From: a virus
Taxonomy: Duplodnaviria; Heunggongvirae; Uroviricota; Caudoviricetes
Direction: 5' to 3' (one strand)
IMG/VR virus record: IMGVR_UViG_2609459839_000001
Length of the DNA: 39,079 bases
Part shown: piece after piece, positions 3,329-34,447 of the stretch
Numbering within the stretch: the first letter of the stretch is position 1
How the letters are laid out: every line of letters begins with the position of its first letter
Made by a program: the position numbers and the translations under genes
The notes under the pieces: generated by a model
Databases searched by the model: none
Told to the model about the DNA's origin: nothing
What the model saw: the letters and a program-made list of their open reading frames with translations, nothing else

Positions 3329-6300
3329 TCAGCTAATCGTGATGCCTGCAGTGGCTTTCTTCATCACAACAACCAGCAAATCGCTGATACTTGCTGTGGG
3401 ATACCAACCATTTACCCACCATGCTGATACAGAAAACTCCAGTGTCATTACGCCACTGCCTGCAGGCATATCAATAACACCCGTGTATATCAGCGTATTA
3501 TCCAGAGCCGTTCGGTTATAAATTTCAGCCCCGTTTTTCTTCACTATCAGGCGGCATGACGAATAAGTATCGCTATTCTCCCGCTCATGTCTGGCACCGC
3601 TGAAAGCCACCGCAGGAATAACAATTTGCCGGTCAAACGGCTGATCGTCATAAACCCTGACGGTAATGGTCCCTGATGGCCACCGCTCCGGTGCACGGGA
3701 GTCCCGGGGGAAAGCTTTGCCCACTGTTTTAACGAGATCGCCTTCAATCTGGTTCGCGGACAGTTTTCCCAGAACCCGACAGTTCTCGTTAATCGTGACG
3801 TTGTTGAGCGTCCCTGAATTTGCATTCACATTACCGCTGATATCCGCATTTTTAGCGGTCAACTTTCCGTCCGGTGTCAGGGAAAATGCCGGCGGATTTC
3901 CACCGCTGGTAATGGTGGGAGCCGTCAGGCGTTTCAGGAACACGTCGTTCATGAATATCTGGTTGCCCTGCGCCACAAACATCGGCGTTTCATTCCCGTT
4001 TGCCGGGTCAATAAACGCGATACGATTGGCGGCAACCAGAAACTGGCTCAGCTTGCCTTCCTCCGTGTCCTCCATGCTGAGGCCAATACCCGCGACATAA
4101 TGTTTGCCGTCTTTGGTCTGCTCAATTTTGACGCCCCACATAGCATTCCATTTATCGTTAGCGTCCTTCCACTCTTTCGAAAACTCATCCAGTCTGCTGG
4201 CGTTATCCTCCGTCAGGTCGACTTTTTTCAGCAGCTCTTTACCGAGATGGGATTCGGTTATCTTGCCTTTGAAAAAATCCAGGTAACCTTCCGCATCATC
4301 GCTCGCCCGACCGACGGCCTCCACGAATGCCGATTTGCCAACGGTGTTCACACTGCGGATATAAAAGTAATAATCATGGCCCGGTTTGATATTGATACTG
4401 GCGGCTATCCAGTACAGCCCCGTGCCAAGGTAGCGGGCTGTGGTTTCAACCTGCCTGATATCGGTAATCCGCGTTTCCGAGAACCAGAACTCAAACTGTA
4501 CCGTCGGATCATAAACCGCAAGATGCGGCGTGGCAGTTATCTGAAAATAGCCCGGCGTCAGCTCAATCCGCGACGGCGCTGCCGGGGCGGCAATCCGGAA
4601 CGATACCGATGCCGGATCGCCCTGCTGCCCCCAGGCATTTGCCGCCCGGACTGTCAGCCTGTAGTTTCCCAGCGCCAGTTGCGTGAAGCGGTATGTGGTT
4701 TCCGTCGTCCGGGCCGTGCTGACCAGCCGCTCACTGCCGTCATCCGCTGCCACGGTCAGGCGAAGCATAAAGCTCACACCCTTCACCACCTTCGGCGTAT
4801 CCCAGCGCGCCAGCACCTGGTATTCCCCGCTGTCTGCGGTGACTTCGGCAGTCAGATGCTGCACTGCTGGCGGTGTGACCCCGTTCACCGTGCCGCTCTG
4901 GTCGCCGTCAAAGTGCGCCCCGTTATCCACGATGGCCTCTTTTTCCGGTACATGCTGCACGGCGGTGATGGCATACGTGCCGTCGTCGTTCTCACGGATA
5001 CTCACGCAGCGGAACAGGCGCTGGCGCAACGTCGGCAGCTTCAGCCCCCATACGCTGTATTCAGCAACGCCGTCAGGAACACGGCTCACTTTCACCTTCA
5101 CGCCGTCGGTGACGGACTGAACCTCCACGCTGACCGGACTCCCCTGCCCGTCAACCAGGCTTATCAGCGTGGTGCCGGAAGATGGCAGCGTGATTTCACG
5201 GTCGAGCGTCAGCGTCCGGGTCTGGCTGTTTACCGCCAGCACGCGCCCGCCGGTGCGGATACCGGCATAGTCATCATCGCAGATTTCAATGACATCCCCC
5301 GGTACATGGCGAAGCCCTTCGGCACCCACGCTGAAGTCCACGGTCTGCGTTTCCAGCAGTTCTGTTTTAATCAGCCACAGCCCGGCGCGGTGTGCCTGCC
5401 CCCGGCTGGTACAGCCAAAAGCATCCATCTTCGTGACGTTACGACCGTAACGGGCAATGGCCTGCGTGTCCTCCACAAGCTCTGTCGCCGTCTCCCAGCC
5501 GTTATTCGGGTCAATCCAGTTCACCTCAACGGCATTATGGCGGTCCTTCAGGGCGCTGAAGCTGTAGCGGAACGGCGCACCATCATCCGGCATCACCACA
5601 TTACTGCGGTTATAGGTCCACACCTTATCCGACCGTCGGTCCTGCACGAACGTCAGCGTCTGCCCGTTCCATACCGGCATACAGCGCATCGCCGAGCAGA
5701 AATCACTGAGCACATCCCACGCCTTGCGCTGCGTGGTCATGTACGCATTACAGGTGATGCGCGGCTCCGTGCCACCAAAGCCATCCGGCACCGACTGGTC
5801 GCAATTCTGGCCGATGACATACAGCGCCCATTTATCCACATCCGCCGCACCAAGACGTTTCCCCATGCCGTAGCGCGGATGGGTCAGCATATCCCACAGA
5901 CACCAGGCCATGTTGTTGCTGTATGCTGGCTTAAACGTTCCGTCCCAGATACCGCTGTATTGCCGCGTCTGCGGGTTATAGTTCGACGGCACCTGCAGAA
6001 TACGCCCGCGAAGATGATAATTACGGCTCACCTGCTGACTGCCGAACTGTTCCGAGTCCACCTGCACGCCGACCAGTGCCGTGTTCGGGTAGCACTGTTT
6101 CACATCGATGATTTCGGTGTATGACGACCAGAGCGTTTTGTTCTGCAGCTGGTCTGTGGTGCTGTCCGGCGTCATCCTGCGCATCCGGATATTAAACGGG
6201 CGCGGCGGCAGGTTATCCACCACTACCGATGCCAGATACTGCGAGGTGGTTTTGCCCTTAATGGTGATGTCTTTTTCCGTCACCCAGCCACCGTTACGTT

Positions 6301-6724
6301 GTATCTGAACCAGCAGGCGGACTTCCGATGGATTCCGGTCCCCTTTTGAGGTGGTTTCCACCAGAGCCTGCACACCGAAGGTAAAACGCAGACGGTCGAT
6401 GTTTGCAGACGTGATGGTCCGGATGATCGGCGTGTCGTATTTCACTTCCGTACCCAGCACCTTCTCGGAGCCGGAGGATTCAAACCCCTCAGGCGGTGTC
6501 TGCTCCTGCTCACCTGCCCGGAACACCACCGTGACGCCGGATATATTGGTATTCCCCTCACTGTCCAGCACCGGCGTACTGTTCAGCAGCACGCTTTTTA
6601 ATCCATCCACCGGGCCTTCAATCGGGCCTTCACTAATGGCATCAATCACACTCAGTAACTGCGTTGATTTGAGATTATCTTTCGCCTCACGCGGAGTGTG
6701 TGCTTTACCGCCACCTTTACCCAT
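3329..6724 (-). CDS. J: host specificity / tail tip protein J
   Basis: 1131 aa; N-terminus [41 protein letters not shown] and overall length match lambda gpJ. Confidence 0.95.
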
Positions 6725-6860
6725 GATGATTCCTTCTGATTGATATGATTAATCGCAGCAATAGCCACATTGCATAACTCTTGCGCGATATCATTGAAAC
6801 GCTGCTTGTTTTCCTGCAACCAGTAAACTCAATCTGTTAACAGGATTTAATGAGGGGTTT

Positions 6861-7388
6861 ATGAAATGTAAAGTTATTGCTGCCATTGCAATGCTGACAG
6901 CATCATCGTGTGGATACTCAGCCACAAAAGAAGTCCCAATGAACCTGGTGAATGCTGATGGTAAAGAACAGAGCATTGGAAAAATAACTGTCCAGGAGAC
7001 AACCTATGGTCTGCTGTTCACTCCAGAGCTTCACTCTTTACCCGAAGGCATTCATGGCTTTCATGTACACGAGAACGGAAACTGTGCTCCGGCACTGAAA
7101 GATGGGAAACCTGTCGCTGCATTATCAGCAGGAGGTCACTTTGATCCGAATAAAACCGGGAAACATCTTGGACCCTGGTCTCCTGATGGGCATCTCGGTG
7201 ATCTCCCCGCGCTATATGTGACTCATGATGGAAAAGCGAACTATCCTGTACTCGCACCGAAACTGACCCGGTTAAAAGAGATAGACGGACGTTCTCTCAT
7301 GATCCACATCGGCGGTGACAACCATCACGACCACCCAGATCCACTCGGTGGTGGTGGTGCGAGAATAGCCTGCGGCATCATTCCATAA
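6861..7388 (+). CDS. sodC: periplasmic Cu/Zn superoxide dismutase (prophage moron)
   Basis: 175 aa, signal peptide, His-rich copper/zinc ligand motifs ([39 protein letters not shown]); SD GAGGGG before ATG 6861; antisense to flanking tail genes. Confidence 0.9.
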
Positions 7389-26098: not shown

Positions 26099-26173
<75 letters not shown>

Positions 26174-26176
26174 ATA

Positions 26177-26252
<76 letters not shown>

Positions 26253-26254
26253 AC

Positions 26255-26331
26255 TGGACCGCCACCGGGGACTCGAACCTCGCACACTCAACTTAAAGGG
26301 TTGACGCTCTTTCCTGATGAGCCAGTGGCGG
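26255..26331 (-). tRNA. aberrant tRNA-like gene, anticodon UUU (Lys) if functional; possible pseudo-tRNA
   Basis: CCGCCAC acceptor with CCA end and TTCGAGT T-loop, but C at position 33, atypical D-loop, and an A-C mismatch in T-stem. Confidence 0.45.
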
Positions 26332-26332
26332 T

Positions 26333-26408
26333 TGGTGGCCCTTGCTGGATTTGAACCAGCGACCTGGCGATTATGAGTCGCTCGCTCTCACCACTGAGCT
26401 AAAGGGCC
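26333..26408 (-). tRNA. tRNA with anticodon CAU (Met or Ile2/lysidine type, ileX/ileZ-like)
   Basis: GGCCCTT acceptor, anticodon loop CTCATAA, TTCAAAT T-loop, CCA end; resembles E. coli ileX. Confidence 0.75.
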
Positions 26409-29101: not shown

Positions 29102-30223
29102 CTAGTGAATTTTGCCTCTAAGAGTTCGGTAAGATTGTAGTGAAACAACATCACCACTTCCTGGCAGTTCATGAACCGCAGGAAGATCATCTCCTACTAA
29201 CTCATAAAAAATGTCCACTTCTATATCCATTTCATCAGCTATACGCTGTGGGTCGTATCCTAACTCTTCAAATAAAAACGATAAAGCCCGACGGAATAAC
29301 TCAGGACGCTCATGAGGGATTAGATAATCTTCTTTTTCATCAATAGCTTCCCCTTTCCGTTTCAACCCCATAAATGCAGTTCTGTACTGCTCATCAGTCA
29401 AAAGTCCTAATTGATGAGCCCTGTAAACAATGGCAGCCTTACTTACTTTCCATGTCAACTTAAATTGGCTTAGTCCCTGCCAATTTATCCTCCCCCCCAC
29501 AGGTCTTGGAAAATATTTCGCCATCGACGTTCTGGGAAGCAACAGAGCAGAGGCAAAACGGTTTGCCTGGGATTCAGTTAATCTATCCCCAGTAGAAATT
29601 CCTTCATGAAGAATCAAATGGGCAACCTCATGAGCAATATCAAAGCGTTGCCTACAAGGTGAATTTTTAGCTGTATTTCGAACAATAAAAGGCCTTCGTA
29701 GAGGAACAGACAGTGCATCTACTTCATCCGAAACGGAGTCAAATGAAGTAACAAACGCCCCAAGTTTCTCGGCAAGGCGAGTCATATTTTCAATTGGGCC
29801 AAAGCCTAAGCCCCACTCAATACGACATTTTTCTGCCGCTCGCTCGATATCTTCTTGTGTATGGACACGAAATTCAGGAAATCGAACAGGTGACAAATTA
29901 AGGTTATCTTCAAATACATCAATAAAACGACGATAAAACTCAGCCTTAGCGAGTGTTGATAGCTTCGTTGACATCCTTGTCGAGGCGCGTTTACGAAAAT
30001 GTACAATCTCTTCATTAACAGGAGAATGTTCCTGCCCTTCGAAAAAGGCGGGCTTCACGCGCAAAACCTCGGCTAATTTATTTATAAGCTCTGGGGATGG
30101 AGTAGCTGAACCAGACTCCAGTCGCTGTACATACTGGCGTGTTTTTTCAACCTTCTCAGCAACCTGCTCCAGAGATAGCTCGTGATACAGACGAGCAAGT
30201 CTTAAATTAGTACCGTTAAACAC
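29102..30223 (-). CDS. XRE-family HTH fused to M78 (ImmA/IrrE, COG2856) zinc metallopeptidase
   Basis: 373 aa; N-terminal HTH (LSLEQVAEKVEKTRQYVQRLESG), HEXXH motif HEVAHLILH; GTG start 10 nt after upstream gene stop. Confidence 0.8.
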   Translation of the reverse strand: MFNGTNLRLARLYHELSLEQVAEKVEKTRQYVQRLESGSATPSPELINKLAEVLRVKPAFFEGQEHSPVNEEIVHFRKRASTRMSTKLSTLAKAEFYRRFIDVFEDNLNLSPVRFPEFRVHTQEDIERAAEKCRIEWGLGFGPIENMTRLAEKLGAFVTSFDSVSDEVDALSVPLRRPFIVRNTAKNSPCRQRFDIAHEVAHLILHEGISTGDRLTESQANRFASALLLPRTSMAKYFPRPVGGRINWQGLSQFKLTWKVSKAAIVYRAHQLGLLTDEQYRTAFMGLKRKGEAIDEKEDYLIPHERPELFRRALSFLFEELGYDPQRIADEMDIEVDIFYELVGDDLPAVHELPGSGDVVSLQSYRTLRGKIH

Positions 30224-30233
30224 ATTTCACCCA

Positions 30234-30827
30234 CTATTTGCTATTTTGTTTCTTTTCCTTCTCAGTCTTAGACGCACTGATAGGTTCTAGTTCGATAGGT
30301 ACCGGTGCTGGAGGTACATCATCGACAGAGTTCAGCATAACAACACGGTCCGCACCATATGTCCAAGTTGACACGATCTCACCAAACACGTTATAGCCAT
30401 TAAAAATGACTCTACCACCCTCGCCTTCAAATTCAGGCTTTTCAACCACAAAGCGATGCATAGTTGGAGTAGTCTCCTCTGACTCAAAGAGTCGATCAGC
30501 ATCATTTCTTTTGAAAAAACCGCGTTTCTTGGGGTTATCTGCGTCATCAGTAAAGAAACGAATAGGGACATTCCCAATTGAAAACGTAAGATCCATGCCA
30601 GGATTAAGTAGTCTTAACCAGTCATATGTCTTTCGTACGCACATTTGTAGCAACGCCTGCCGCTGACGCCCAAATGTACAACCACCACGAGTGTAATTAT
30701 CATCATAGGGCGATGACAATAACTCATGAGTAATATCCTGTATCCTGAGCAACTCCTCAGCTATAATGGTTAAACGCTCCTCTGTTAACTCAGGAAAGAA
30801 CTCCCAAGGGAATGGATGGTTCTGCAT
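30234..30827 (-). CDS. hypothetical protein (197 aa), first gene of cargo cassette
   Basis: ATG 30827 preceded by GGAGAAG; no recognisable motif. Confidence 0.6.
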   Translation of the reverse strand: MQNHPFPWEFFPELTEERLTIIAEELLRIQDITHELLSSPYDDNYTRGGCTFGRQRQALLQMCVRKTYDWLRLLNPGMDLTFSIGNVPIRFFTDDADNPKKRGFFKRNDADRLFESEETTPTMHRFVVEKPEFEGEGGRVIFNGYNVFGEIVSTWTYGADRVVMLNSVDDVPPAPVPIELEPISASKTEKEKKQNSK

Positions 30828-30862
30828 AGACACTTCTCCGCCTAATCCGTGCAAAAAACGAC

Positions 30863-30909
30863 TTTTGTCAACCAAGATATTGGTGCATATTCATAATTTT
30901 GTCAACCAA
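30863..30909 (-). promoter_or_regulatory. promoter-like region with two direct copies of TTGGTTGACAAAA (each containing TTGACA)
   Basis: Copies at 30863-30875 and 30897-30909 (plus-strand TTTTGTCAACCAA); distal TTGACA-17 nt-CAATAT. Confidence 0.35.
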
Positions 30910-30910
30910 T

Positions 30911-30931
30911 AAAAAACCCGCCGAAGCGGGT
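30911..30931 (-). terminator. rho-independent terminator, identical hairpin to that at 29081-29096
   Basis: ACCCGC cgaa GCGGGT followed on minus strand by TTTTTTATTGG. Confidence 0.55.
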
Positions 30932-31277
30932 TAAGTGCGGGTGCGTTGAGGATGCCTGACACATCAGAGGTGGCGAGGGATTTCTCCCTCGCCTGGTCTC
31001 TTACTCCTCAGGTTCGTAAGCTGTGAAGACAGCGACCTCCGTCTGGCCGGTTCGGATTCGTACCTCGCAGAGGTCTTTCCTCGTTATCAGTACCGCAACA
31101 ATTTCGTATTCATGATTCATTTCATCTAAAACAGTTCATAAACCTAAATAAATTCAAAAAATCACAACACAAATAAATATAAATTATCTCATCCTGAAGA
31201 ACGATAGGATTATTTAGAATTAATAACAATTAATGTAACAATAATTATCAATCCAGATTATTCAAATAAAATGTCAT

Positions 31278-32324
31278 TTACCATATGGAGTTGTGAATGA
31301 ACTTTAATTCATTTTTTATTTTGTTAACAGATAAATTCACGGATGTCCTAACTCTATTCACAGTCATTGCATCTCCTGGATTTAACAACTCTAATGGTTT
31401 AGACTTAGCACTTGACATTCTGCCACTACCCAGAAAATCATCAAGAATCACAATGTGATTATTAGGATCATCTGTTGTAAAATTACTAATATTTTGTCGA
31501 ATTACCTCTCTTACAGCTTCGATGTACATTTTTGTCTGTTGATTTGGTTTATTCCTTGCTCCTGCCACTGTTGACCATCCGCAATGGGTAATAACCACCA
31601 TCTGAATTTTTGGTGTATGGCCATCAGACGGCATTATCTTTCTAAATTCTGATGTTGGTTTAGTCAGAGTATCAATAAGTAATCTTAATGAATTAATCGA
31701 TTGCTGATCTGTCCTCACTGGAACTATTAAAGCATCTGTTGCATGCCAAGATAAATGCGTCGCTCCAGAGAAAAAAGGTGATGTATCAATTAACGCTTTT
31801 GTAGTACCAGTTTCAACCATTTCTCTGGCTATTTCTTTCTTCAGAGAAAAAAGAATTGTATCAATAACAACCTGCTGAGTAGCCCCAGAAATTGTTCTGG
31901 CTTGAGCCAGAGCATTCGCCATTTGCGTAGGTAGAAGATAAAGTTGACTATCAGATTGAATAAAATAGTTATTCTTGCCCGCAAACCAAGCATTAGTTGA
32001 TGATACTAGCTTTGCAGCACGCGTTGCAAATCCAAGCCCTGGAACAAAATAAGGCATTAAGAGGTCATTTGCAGTTGTGCTAGACGAAGATGCATAATTA
32101 TTGTCAAAAAAATATGATAAATTTCCTTGCGGGCACGTATCCACGATTAATGCGTTATCCGCCAAATATGACAGATTAAAAGTTAAAGATGTCTTACCAA
32201 TGCCTCCCCGTAAATTACATACTGTATATTTATCATATTTCGGCAAATTAAGACTTCTTACATTACCGTCAGCAACTTCGAATTGACGCTCTATCAGAGC
32301 ATTAACATTTGATTCACTAGTCAT
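31278..32324 (-). CDS. ParA/MinD-like P-loop ATPase in AT-rich cargo segment
   Basis: 348 aa; deviant Walker A NLRGGIGKTS (Arg where ParA/MinD have the signature Lys), DTCPQGN motif; region visibly AT-rich. Confidence 0.7.
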   Translation of the reverse strand: MTSESNVNALIERQFEVADGNVRSLNLPKYDKYTVCNLRGGIGKTSLTFNLSYLADNALIVDTCPQGNLSYFFDNNYASSSSTTANDLLMPYFVPGLGFATRAAKLVSSTNAWFAGKNNYFIQSDSQLYLLPTQMANALAQARTISGATQQVVIDTILFSLKKEIAREMVETGTTKALIDTSPFFSGATHLSWHATDALIVPVRTDQQSINSLRLLIDTLTKPTSEFRKIMPSDGHTPKIQMVVITHCGWSTVAGARNKPNQQTKMYIEAVREVIRQNISNFTTDDPNNHIVILDDFLGSGRMSSAKSKPLELLNPGDAMTVNRVRTSVNLSVNKIKNELKFIHNSIW

Positions 32325-32531
32325 ATCGCCACCATTAGTTTTACACTTTTATTGATGATATGGAAAACTAACCTAGTTGTCAACAATGGATTAAAAAACA
32401 AACACACAAGCGTTTATCAAAAGCACCTTGATTGGTGATACTACCGTGTCTTTCAGCCAAACAGTTCAGTATGTAAAGCGAATCCAACATCAATTAAGAA
32501 CGTTTTCAGCGCTCCCCCAGTTGTCTAGATG

Positions 32532-32792
32532 TCAAACTTCATGCGCTCTCCTGTCGAAATAAACGTACTGATTAATCATGCCCAAGGACATTTCGCGTTT
32601 TACAGCGATATCACGGCGGGGAACTCCACACTGATGAAGCTTCCGCACTAGCTCAATATCGCTTTGCGGATGTTTTTTTGATTGGTTATAACCCCCCCCT
32701 CTTAACATCCTATTGATACCCAGTTCCTGCGCTTTCGCTCTGACAGCATAACTAGAACGATCAATCAACCCTCCTATGCTTTCGGCCGTCAA
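32532..32792 (-). CDS. small hypothetical protein, possible HTH
   Basis: 86 aa, TTG start. Confidence 0.4.
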   Translation of the reverse strand: MTAESIGGLIDRSSYAVRAKAQELGINRMLRGGGYNQSKKHPQSDIELVRKLHQCGVPRRDIAVKREMSLGMINQYVYFDRRAHEV

Positions 32793-32809
32793 CGCGTCTA
32801 CACAATTGC

Positions 32810-33265
32810 CTAAGCGCCATGATTTCCCTCATGCACAACCTGTTCACCGAATGTCTCTCGAAAACCATTCTGGTAAAATGCCAGTACACGCTGCATAGCT
32901 TCGCTCTTCCGGCACTCGCGACAGATTATGTTCTGACGCCTGTCGTAGCGACGTATTTCTCCGTCAGGTAATGACCAGATAAGGTCCGGATCAACCGCAG
33001 ATGGTTTCTTCAGCTTTGCCCTTGAGAGCTTTTTACGGGCATTTTGCCAGTCCTTACGCGCCTGTTCAGACGGGAATAACCCGTAACCAGAGTTGTATAC
33101 ATCGCCACTGGCAACCAGCTCTCTGGCCAGAACGCTCATCAGATATCTTGTTGCCCCAGTTTTAGCTTCCAGTTGTCGTAACGTCTCGCGCCCACTCTGG
33201 CGTACGAGTTCAAGAACCTGCCCTTTAATTTTTTCCCGCTCTTCTTGTGTAAAAACTTTTGCCAC
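32810..33265 (-). CDS. hypothetical protein downstream of replication initiator
   Basis: 151 aa, GTG start with strong SD AGGAGGG. Confidence 0.5.
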   Translation of the reverse strand: MAKVFTQEEREKIKGQVLELVRQSGRETLRQLEAKTGATRYLMSVLARELVASGDVYNSGYGLFPSEQARKDWQNARKKLSRAKLKKPSAVDPDLIWSLPDGEIRRYDRRQNIICRECRKSEAMQRVLAFYQNGFRETFGEQVVHEGNHGA

Positions 33266-33305: not shown

Positions 33306-34376
33306 TTACCCCCTGAAGCCCGGCGGAATTTCGTTATCCGGTTCAGAAATATGATTCACACAACGCTGGTTGTTCGTGCCGCTTACCGGGAGAAACCAGG
33401 GGTTCTCAAAATTCCGGTCCGGTCCAAAAAACGTCGTCGCTCGCTGAACAAATTCCGTTCCCGTTTTCCCGGTAGCCGCCAGGTATCTTGCGTAACGCCT
33501 CACGCCATCCAGCATGGCCTCTGGTGGCACCCCCTCGCGTAATCTGGCCTTCCAGGCACTGAAAGCGGATTTCTTCGGGTTTGCTCCGGCACGCAACGGG
33601 TACTCCCGCCAGACCTGTTCGAACACATCCGGATAATCCACTCGTCCCACAGACTGACCGGTGTTTTCCGGGACTACCCGATCGGCTTCCCGCTGAATGG
33701 CGGAATCGGCTTCAGGCTGCTGAAGTTGGTGTGATTGCTCCTGCCTTGCGGTCATCACCTGCTGCACAGCGCCCGAATCGGCTTTCAGCGCATACGCTGA
33801 ATCGGCTTCCGGTGTCGTGCCTGCTGGCTGACCAGGATTGACGGTCTGAACATCCCCTGCCTGGTTCGTGGCGTTTTTTACGCCATGGACCATAGTGTTT
33901 TGATCTTCTTGATCTGTATCTTTATCTGTATCTTTATCTGTCGTGACTCGTCGTGACATGTGCGTGACATTTCGTGACGCGCCGTGACAATCGCCATTTT
34001 GTTCCCGCTTTCTTTCCCTCTCTCGCTGCGCCCTCTTGCGCTCTGCAGGAGATTTTGCGGTTTGCGAAATATTGCCGTTGTCCTCTTTAAGCACCTGGCG
34101 TTTTTCCCATCCAGTGATTAAATCACCATCAAGTACCCGCCCCTGCATCGTCTGCAAAATTGAATCAATTACCTCTTCTGTCACGTCGAGCGCACTTGCC
34201 AAATCTTCTGTCGTGACATCAATGTGACCTCGCGTGACATTTCGTGACGCGCTCACTAGGAGGTGGATATACACTGCCATCACTGTTGCAATTGACTGCC
34301 CTGAGACCCTGGCAATTGTTCGCCACTTAGGGTCATTTGGCATGTCATGCCATAATCTGAGCCAGGCGTTAGCCAT
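33306..34376 (-). CDS. replication initiator / replisome organiser (O-like) containing the origin
   Basis: ~356 aa; N-terminal replisome-organiser-like region; iteron arrays inside coding sequence; ATG 34376 with SD GAGGTGA. Confidence 0.7.
   Translation of the reverse strand: MANAWLRLWHDMPNDPKWRTIARVSGQSIATVMAVYIHLLVSASRNVTRGHIDVTTEDLASALDVTEEVIDSILQTMQGRVLDGDLITGWEKRQVLKEDNGNISQTAKSPAERKRAQRERERKREQNGDCHGASRNVTHMSRRVTTDKDTDKDTDQEDQNTMVHGVKNATNQAGDVQTVNPGQPAGTTPEADSAYALKADSGAVQQVMTARQEQSHQLQQPEADSAIQREADRVVPENTGQSVGRVDYPDVFEQVWREYPLRAGANPKKSAFSAWKARLREGVPPEAMLDGVRRYARYLAATGKTGTEFVQRATTFFGPDRNFENPWFLPVSGTNNQRCVNHISEPDNEIPPGFRG
33913..33988. repeat. origin iterons: two 12-bp AT-rich repeats (TCTGTATCTTTA) followed by five CGTGAC copies at ~10-11 bp spacing
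   Basis: Read directly; CGTGAC at 33942, 33952, 33963, 33973, 33983. Confidence 0.65.
34211..34251. repeat. second iteron cluster (four [C]GTGAC copies); 19-nt CGTGACATTTCGTGACGCG identical to 33963-33981
   Basis: Read directly. Confidence 0.6.
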
Positions 34377-34447
34377 ACTCACCTCTTCTGATACCGAATC
34401 TTTTTACTCACGAGTTGCCGGAAGCGATTCGATATGGCTATTGTCAG

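Follow-up and report, generated by a model that had tools for sequence, protein, structure and literature searches.

ParA/MinD ATPases are understood as two-component gradient motors, in which an ATPase is paired with a partner that stimulates it. Replacement of the aspartate at the Walker A' position of these proteins by alanine gives an ATP-bound dimer that is unable to hydrolyse (PMC8684754). The 250-residue protein BcsQ, which is encoded in the bcs operon and has BcsR and BcsE as partners, carries a cysteine, C39, at this 'catalytic water-activating position'; BcsRQ crystallises only in the form of a sandwich dimer with ATP bound and has weak ATPase activity (PMC8892547). Type Ia partition ATPases such as P1 ParA and F SopA repress their own promoters via an overlapping inverted-repeat operator (PMC9178275), and orphan members are also known from integrated mobile elements. 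ParI, from a genomic island of Pseudomonas putida, acts in conflict between elements rather than in segregation of its own element, destabilising IncP-7 plasmids in a Walker A-dependent manner (PMC9178275). STM14_3218 lies without a ParB in a strain-variable region of the lambdoid prophage Gifsy-1 of Salmonella 14028s; the lysogen expresses it, and both the host response and phage yield are affected by its region (PMC9879122). Here we describe a solitary ParA/MinD-fold ATPase gene in the IMG/VR virus record IMGVR_UViG_2609459839_000001, a 39,079-nucleotide stretch of DNA (hereafter the window) that represents a Qin-like lambdoid prophage. The gene (31278..32324, minus strand, ATG start) encodes 348 amino acids and is entered in RefSeq as WP_000200161.1, 'ParA family protein'. 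It is laterally acquired single-gene cargo belonging to a distinct, strongly constrained ParA/MinD subfamily, and a conserved promoter with a putative operator travels with it.

The assignment to the ParA/MinD fold is supported at the level of both profile and structure. The protein matches Pfam AAA_31 (39.3 bits against a cut-off of 27) and PHROG 164, 'ParA-like' (3e-30). When its AlphaFold2 model (predicted local distance difference test, pLDDT, 78; predicted template modelling score, pTM, 0.81) was compared with known structures by Foldseek, nearly all of the 50 PDB matches listed were ParA, Soj, McdA, MinD, FlhG or BcsQ, with a best E value of ~1e-7 and identities of 13-20%. The best structural matches are ParA, Soj and McdA (PDB 2bek, 1wcv, 6non, 7npe, 8jmj), which share with it the GKT of Walker A, the Walker B motif and the PQ-N motif. 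The protein differs from them in its 13-20% identity, in the replacement of the catalytic aspartate, in the lack of a ParB/McdB-type partner gene, in its rarity on plasmids, and in some 90 extra residues, made up of an N-terminal helix, an insert at about residues 75-160 and a longer C-terminal part. Ahead of the ATPase core's first strand, the N-terminal extension, some 30 residues in length, has a single modelled helix (residues 4-18). The curated partition profile NF041546 ParA_partition rejects the protein, at 25.6 bits against a cut-off of 180.

Two substitutions in the active site set this protein apart. Its Walker A motif reads N37-L-R39-GGIGK44T45S (NLRGGIGKTS, residues 37-46), its Walker A' motif V61-D62-T-C64-PQGN (DTCPQGN, residues 62-68) and its Walker B motif L-I-D180-TSP. 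A preliminary description, made from the letters of the window alone, had picked out the 348-residue open reading frame (ORF) with NLRGGIGKTS and DTCPQGN and had reported arginine in place of the signature lysine; the reading frame is as it was given, and alignments with Soj bear out the substitution, as Arg39 aligns with the signature lysine of NQKGGVGKT and is invariant in 28 of 28 diverse members of the family. The motif of McdA, too, lacks the signature lysine (SGGQGKT). The second substitution, Cys64, lies within the DTCPQGN motif that the preliminary description had quoted, and went unremarked there. It too is invariant in the 28 members and aligns with the water-activating aspartate of Walker A' (D44 of Soj, D38 of McdA), the position at which DLDPQGN in wild-type Soj becomes DLAPQGN in the D44A trap, and DADPQ in McdA becomes DAAPQ in D38A. 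The P-loop lysine and threonine are kept, G43-K44-T45 and the Walker B residue D180 being invariant, as are R13 and Q14 near the N terminus, H190, H194 and C248. A metal or redox site made up of C64, C248, H190 and H194 is conceivable. Relatives of about 30-40% identity mostly share [LF]RGG.GKT and D.CPQ, and still remoter ones revert to KGG.

The same pair of residues occurs in BcsQ (PDB 6ybu, 6yar), which has arginine at the signature-lysine site (RGGVG) and cysteine at Walker A' (DACPDN against DTCPQGN here) within the motifs GVRGGVGTTT...VVDACPDN. By analogy, the very stable ATP sandwich dimers and weak ATPase of BcsQ match the behaviour that may be expected of the protein in the window. 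The two are nonetheless distinct: BcsQ lacks the P-loop lysine (GTT) whereas the present family keeps GKT, and BcsQ is a shorter protein from an operon with partners whereas the gene described here is solitary and mobile. The BcsQ equivalog model TIGR03371 scores 31.4 bits against a cut-off of 157.85, covering residues 35-74 only, and there are no bcs genes near the gene in the window. The preliminary description had raised the possibility of a degenerate ATPase, of which one half survives. Attenuated or re-tuned hydrolysis is plausible from the motifs; decay is not, since Arg39 is invariant across a strongly conserved cross-phylum family and is paired with an invariant Cys64, as in BcsQ. 'Degenerate' is therefore the wrong word, and Arg39 appears to be one of two conserved substitutions that together re-tune the catalytic site.

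The family to which the gene belongs is both widespread and compact. A search of 5.8 billion proteins returned 706 homologues, of which the best 120 are all about 346 residues long and 62-96% identical, from sources that include Enterobacter, Yersinia, Burkholderia pseudomallei, Massilia, Desulfovibrio, Sulfurovaceae, Mariprofundales and Magnetococcales. A genome scan added many copies from Lachnospiraceae (55-57% identical), together with Selenomonas, Clostridium, Paenibacillus, Bacteroidota, Pseudanabaena, Thermoguttaceae, Leptospira, Caldilinea, Synergistaceae and Bdellovibrionales. Identity thus stays at or above 50-65% from Enterobacteria to Lachnospiraceae, Desulfovibrio, Burkholderia, cyanobacteria and planctomycetes, and members at 50-65% identity are found in at least 10 phyla. 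The family is judged very compact because only 30 representatives reach E<1e-30 in a library of 1.84 billion sequences clustered at 50% identity. Mean column identity in the alignment of the 28 diverse members is 67%, with invariant blocks at NLRGGIGKTSL, D-x-CPQ, IDTSPFFSG-THL-x-HA-DA, PVRTD-QS-N, C-x-W-x-T and DD-x-x-G-x-GR, and the reading frame is intact and full-length in more than 700 homologues. Database names for its members are all generic (ParA family, AAA family ATPase and one 'YhjQ'). Among cultured phages there is one relative only, gp55 of Ralstonia phage RsoM1USA, at 34.5% identity. IMG/VR holds the Escherichia coli and Enterobacter copies along with a 35-36% identical subfamily in prophages. 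This sister subfamily keeps LRGG and D.CPQ and mostly adjoins a gene for a CI-like repressor; the RsoM1USA copy stands right after int/attP, with a DUF3800 gene following it.

Directly upstream of the gene lies a predicted sigma-70-type promoter (32355..32383, minus strand), with the -35 element TTGACA at 32383-32378, a 17-nucleotide spacer and the -10 element TATCAT at 32360-32355, matching the consensus at 11 of 12 positions. Two candidate operator half-sites bracket its -10 element, and they are the only exact matches to TTAGTTTTMCA in the window. The left one, TTAGTTTTCCA (32361..32371, minus strand), falls inside the -35/-10 spacer. The right one, TTAGTTTTACA (32335..32345, plus strand; TGTAAAACTAA on the coding strand), lies over the predicted start of transcription and stops 1 nucleotide before the ribosome-binding site GGTGG (32333-32329). 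An inverted repeat of this kind, ATTAGTTTTAC...GTAAAACTAAT, is common to the upstream regions of homologues across phyla. Paired cores of the form YTAGWT...AWCTAR were found in 47 of 75 upstream regions, compared with 32 of 1500 shuffles (2%) and none of 71 control segments. The cores are separated by 25 nucleotides in 38 loci and by 46 in 6, which places the half-sites 31 or 52 bp apart, centre to centre, or three and five helical turns.

Homologues of other phyla have a near-consensus promoter in the corresponding position, and in many loci it matches at 12 of 12 positions. Its relation to the repeat takes three forms: in Firmicutes and Planctomycetes the left core begins 4 nucleotides after an 11-12/12 promoter, in several Proteobacteria, including the window, it lies within the -35/spacer region, and in Burkholderia and Massilia it lies upstream of the -35 element. 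All three arrangements have one half-site over the transcript start, which points to operator geometry rather than an RNA hairpin. A hairpin was rejected on the further grounds that the left arm of the window and Enterobacter copies sits in the untranscribed -35/-10 spacer, that the spacing of the arms corresponds to whole helical turns, and that in Firmicutes the left arm, beginning 4 nucleotides after the -10 element, spans the transcript start.

The repeats are not uniform across the wider family. At the same place the 35% subfamily carries 4-7 direct repeats of cGACCTGCa, mostly with a 19-bp period, and does so alike with a CI or an integrase neighbour. A cassette-borne subfamily of about 50% identity (Vibrio-type) has neither promoter nor repeats. 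In one locus, from a Bdellovibrionales metagenome-assembled genome (MAG), the half-site is present as three direct repeats (ACTAGTTTTCT, about 20 nucleotides apart) and not as an inverted pair, so that the arrangement of half-sites seems to be flexible. Because the 35% subfamily has a different repeat, the cis elements co-vary with the protein, and since in addition no other gene co-travels, the simplest reading of these sequences is that the protein itself would bind its own half-sites and repress its own strong promoter.

The gene, its promoter and candidate operator, and short flanks make up an AT-rich islet at 31103..32530, with a guanine-plus-cytosine (GC) content of 0.348 against 0.505 for the whole window. 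This is the lowest value among 754 sliding 1428-nt windows, the lowest non-overlapping one being 0.429. The GC content at third codon positions of the gene is 0.264, and the extremely AT-rich 3' flank of the islet (31103..31277, minus strand) falls to 0.217. No terminator-like site was found in that flank, and transcripts of the gene would be predicted to continue to the hok terminator at 30932-30915. The preliminary description had drawn an AT-rich segment at 31100-32530, within a few bases of the insert determined here, had placed it between the replication genes and a neighbouring cassette, and had taken it for laterally acquired cargo. Placement and origin both proved to be as described: the segment has the lowest GC content in the window, only 14 of 5,426 complete E. 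coli genomes contain the identical DNA, where its gene is annotated as 'ParA family protein' (several of the 14 are enterotoxigenic E. coli, ETEC, strains from humans or pigs), and its slot is occupied by other cargo in sister prophages.

The gene is much AT-richer than its flanks in nearly every host. GC contents of gene and flank are 0.40 and 0.62 in Desulfovibrio, 0.43 and 0.67 in a Rhodospirillales MAG, 0.53 and 0.70 in Burkholderia, and 0.36 and 0.63 in an Oscillospiraceae MAG. The low-GC islet in these other hosts runs from about 100-200 nucleotides before the start codon to within about 100 nucleotides of the stop, and no conserved sequence was found downstream of the homologues. The mobile unit thus appears to be promoter plus gene, about 1.2 kb, which sometimes takes the form of an integron cassette. 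Three copies look like integron gene cassettes because they are flanked by matching attC-like core sites: L092 from Vibrio (GTTAGCT...AGCTAAC), L025 from an Ectothiorhodospiraceae MAG (GTTAGGC...GCCTAAC) and L020 from a Bacteroidetes MAG (GTTAGTG...CACTAAC). A transposon was considered and rejected, as neither terminal inverted repeats nor target-site duplications were seen at the islet borders in 10 GC-rich hosts.

The surroundings of the homologues argue against a partition locus. All ORFs within 4 kb on either side of about 80 loci were called naively and clustered, and this revealed no recurrent neighbour family beyond same-species duplicates and closely related loci; nor was there a ParB beside the gene among the Pfam-annotated neighbours. 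The 138 immediate neighbours, scanned with Pfam and PADLOC, are heterogeneous. They comprise genes of a housekeeping kind (tRNA synthetase, glutamine synthetase, aconitase, proC), genes of mobile elements (resolvases, integrases, transposases, type IV secretion system and relaxase genes), and genes associated with conflict (ParE/PaaA2, HicA, CbtA/CbeA, HEPN, restriction-modification methyltransferases, a type IV restriction endonuclease, KwaB, Cas6 and PbeA). In a Lamprocystis MAG (3947-7363 of the locus), an Unstab_antitox gene and a pair consisting of AAA_15/AAA_21 (an OLD-like ATPase) and DUF3226 stand beside the homologue, in what looks like a defence-type neighbourhood.

Most copies are chromosomal, many of them flanked by housekeeping genes, and the family occurs on only 5 of 72,556 plasmids in PLSDB, all from Aeromonas. 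Two of these were inspected (L141 and L142), one being the 5,942-bp Aeromonas veronii plasmid pWP8-S18-ESBL-11_2 (L141); both have an ordinary, small ParF-like ParA of their own together with ParG or a small adjacent gene. A Yersinia plasmid locus likewise has a separate ParA/ParB pair. The preliminary description had reasoned that an integrating lambdoid phage has no need of a partition ATPase, and the neighbourhoods, the scarcity on plasmids and the independent partition pairs of the plasmid carriers are all in keeping with that view; we infer that segregation of the prophage is not the role of the gene.

Comparison with related prophages places the left junction of the AT-rich insert at 31102/31103. 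Homology to sister prophages, which have an intact hokD and lack the ParA-like gene, ends at 31095-31102 and restarts at 32870, inside a DUF977 gene. The left junction is marked by a hokD remnant without its N-terminus (31001..31102, minus strand; noted as a pseudogene in RefSeq), since the insertion cut hokD. Beside this pseudogene the 3' region of hok is still intact, as is its terminator (30932-30915), and an Rfam scan of 30800-32900 yielded nothing at the insert and a sub-threshold isrK-like match only, at 30911-30992 in that 3' region. Qin-like prophages have a variable cargo slot between the DUF977/Ren-like gene and hokD (31103-32869 in the window), occupied elsewhere by DUF551/DUF4014 genes, by two unrelated genes on the plus strand (310 and 184 residues) or by QueH. 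The remainder of the segment that differs from sister prophages (32531..32869, minus strand) has a GC content of 0.469 and is for this reason regarded as a separate mosaic piece with an origin other than that of the AT-rich islet. Within it, an 86-residue ORF with a TTG start (32532-32792, minus strand), unannotated in RefSeq, matches PHROG 323 ('transcriptional regulator, D5-like'). A stretch of its DNA shows about 87% identity to a portion of a 'DNA-binding protein' gene carried by 94 E. coli plasmids of about 90 kb, and the ORF is probably a gene fragment carried in with the mosaic.

Upstream of the ParA-like gene lie the DUF977/Ren-like gene (32810-33265) and a replication-initiator gene (33306-34382); downstream, the hok remnant is followed by the two-gene cassette at 29102-30875. 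This cassette is a complete Rosmer anti-phage system with a GC content of 0.43, consisting of rmrT (30234-30875, minus strand; PADLOC 7e-93) and rmrA (29102-30223, minus strand; PADLOC 4e-201), the latter with HTH_3 and Peptidase_M78 domains. The window belongs to the Qin-like group, with dicB, ydfA-C and rrrQ present in the RefSeq copies, and it also contains a tRNA cluster on the minus strand at 26099-26408, made up of Gly(TCC), Thr(TGT), Lys(TTT) and a tRNA with a CAT anticodon that is Met according to ARAGORN and Ile in the RefSeq annotation.

Taken with the active site and the promoter, these observations suggest an explanation that we favour tentatively, namely that the gene is mobile cargo (a moron) encoding a slow, autorepressed ATP switch, with a less certain part in conflict, and not a partition motor. 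The unit would consist of a strong promoter overlapped by two phased half-sites and one stand-alone ParA/MinD-fold ATPase gene. The protein may bind ATP and form a long-lived sandwich dimer that hydrolyses slowly, and slow hydrolysis in a long-lived dimer would make it behave as a switch or clamp, and not as a partition motor that cycles. Such a dimer could bind the two half-sites on either side of its own promoter and transcript start, which are separated by three helical turns, and thereby repress itself; self-repression would in turn allow a burst of expression on entry into a new cell, followed by a low steady state. The candidate operator is analogous in geometry to that of the type Ia autorepressors, which differ in having a helix-turn-helix (HTH) domain of about 100 residues at the N terminus and ParB as co-repressor, in place of the extension of about 30 residues with one predicted helix, and no ParB, seen here. 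An accessory role would be to exclude incoming phage or plasmid DNA, or to interfere with it, by means of a persistent DNA-bound state that depends on ATP. We infer more weakly that this places the gene in conflict between mobile elements, on account of its patchy distribution in AT-rich moron slots and integrons, its conflict-gene neighbours, the position of the sister subfamily beside CI or att/int, and the precedents of ParI and Gifsy-1. ParI is likened to it by context alone, as it has a canonical KGGVGKS motif (PMC9178275). STM14_3218, at 840 bp (about 279 residues) and in a three-gene region, is likewise set apart, presumably as a member of a different family. In its boldest form, the proposal would make the gene a new single-gene conflict system, a natural 'ATP-trap' ParA that clamps DNA or some conserved feature of invading replicons, is tightly autorepressed, and is spread via prophage moron slots, islands and integrons; this we regard as rather unlikely.

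Several points weigh against the slow, autorepressed switch and its suggested role. No HTH domain was detected in the protein by Pfam scan or in the AlphaFold2 model, and the case for binding to its own operator is drawn from co-travel and co-variation of gene and repeats. Arg39 and Cys64 could still permit hydrolysis, possibly with a partner in trans, and the C39D change in BcsQ did not raise ATPase activity in vitro (PMC8892547). As for conflict, known defence genes make up only a few percent of the immediate neighbours, a scan of the protein against PADLOC-DB 2.0 gave weak partial matches only (19 bits or less, to PRTase and ShosT models), and cross-phylum identity of 50-65% is unusually high for a defence gene. 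A literature search found no paper on the family and no experiment on any member.

The placement of the repeats immediately upstream of the gene recalls type Ib par loci, whose centromere also serves as operator, and the protein might instead be a one-protein maintenance or tethering system. It would bind its own repeats as a mini-centromere and, as an ATP dimer, the nucleoid non-specifically, anchoring an excised or extrachromosomal element to the chromosome for inheritance. The 4-7 direct repeats of the 35% subfamily, the presence of some copies in integrative, mobilisable or conjugative elements and small plasmids, and an ATP-trap-like active site, which would suit a static anchor, are consistent with this idea. 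It is nevertheless unlikely: the window copy has two half-sites only, and their overlap with the core promoter appears a better fit to an operator than to a centromere; the gene is nearly absent from plasmids, where the inspected copies stand beside ordinary par systems; integron-cassette copies lack the repeats; and many copies lie alone between chromosomal housekeeping genes, with nothing there that needs segregation. A more specific version of the conflict role, in which the orphan ParA is a partition poison or incompatibility determinant, would have it capture the ParB-centromere complexes of incoming low-copy plasmids or phage-plasmids, lock them in place because of its slow hydrolysis, and so destabilise them. 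Here ParI is a precedent, and the ATP-trap mutants P1 ParA K122R and McdA K15R lock cargo on the nucleoid, with effects worse than those of a null (PMC8684754), which makes an ATP-trap-like active site on a mobile-element gene suggestive. Recognition between ParA and ParB is pair-specific, however, so that a protein conserved across phyla would hardly fit diverse local ParB peptides, and E. coli has no chromosomal ParB; we consider this version improbable.

A regulator of lysogenic conversion, or a factor that positions some host process (cell division, envelope machinery or transcription, for instance), would bring the protein closer to BcsQ, FlhG, PpfA or the orphan ParA region of Gifsy-1 that controls RtcR activation. 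Many orphan members of the ParA/MinD family position protein cargo (PMC9178275), the Arg/Cys pair is shared with BcsQ, the STM14_3218-3220 region of Gifsy-1, which includes the orphan ParA-like ATPase in the immunity region, alters a host regulon and the phage yield (PMC9879122), and very high conservation would suit a universally conserved host target. Such a role has little to commend it on other counts, as no partner or cargo gene co-travels, hosts from Firmicutes to Planctomycetes share few candidate targets, the gene is rare and patchy within species, and the protein falls short of the BcsQ model (31 bits against a cut-off of 158); its likelihood is small. Two further readings, a decaying, non-functional remnant of a partition ATPase and a third component of Rosmer, are suggested by the two catalytic-site substitutions and by the adjacent rmrT and rmrA, respectively, and are effectively excluded. 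Against decay stand the more than 700 intact homologues, the high column identity and the motif blocks that are invariant across phyla. Membership of Rosmer is ruled out by the lack of consistent co-occurrence with rmrT and rmrA: Rosmer occurs in other Qin-like prophages that lack the ParA-like gene, and no RmrA-like neighbour was found near homologues in other taxa (about 80 loci). The suggestion that gene and cassette might form one island likewise had to be abandoned, since rmrTA is found with an intact hokD and no ParA-like gene in at least 8 E. coli genomes, the hok remnant lies between the two, each is found alone, and their GC contents differ (0.43 against 0.35); the presence of Rosmer with an intact hokD in genomes without the gene indicates that the two arrived independently.

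The family described here departs from the pattern of the two-component motor in having no partner, in the invariant replacement of both residues that promote hydrolysis, in its putative own operator, and in its horizontal spread as a single gene. A long-lived ATP clamp, if that is how the protein works, would be nature's equivalent of the laboratory ATP-trap mutants and would offer a simple system in which to study the uncoupling of dimerisation from hydrolysis. If a role in exclusion or defence holds true, it would represent a new and very widespread single-gene system, and would explain part of the cargo carried in the variable slot of Qin-like prophages in ETEC strains. Even a negative result would correct the label 'chromosome partitioning protein' that is routinely attached to hundreds of database entries.

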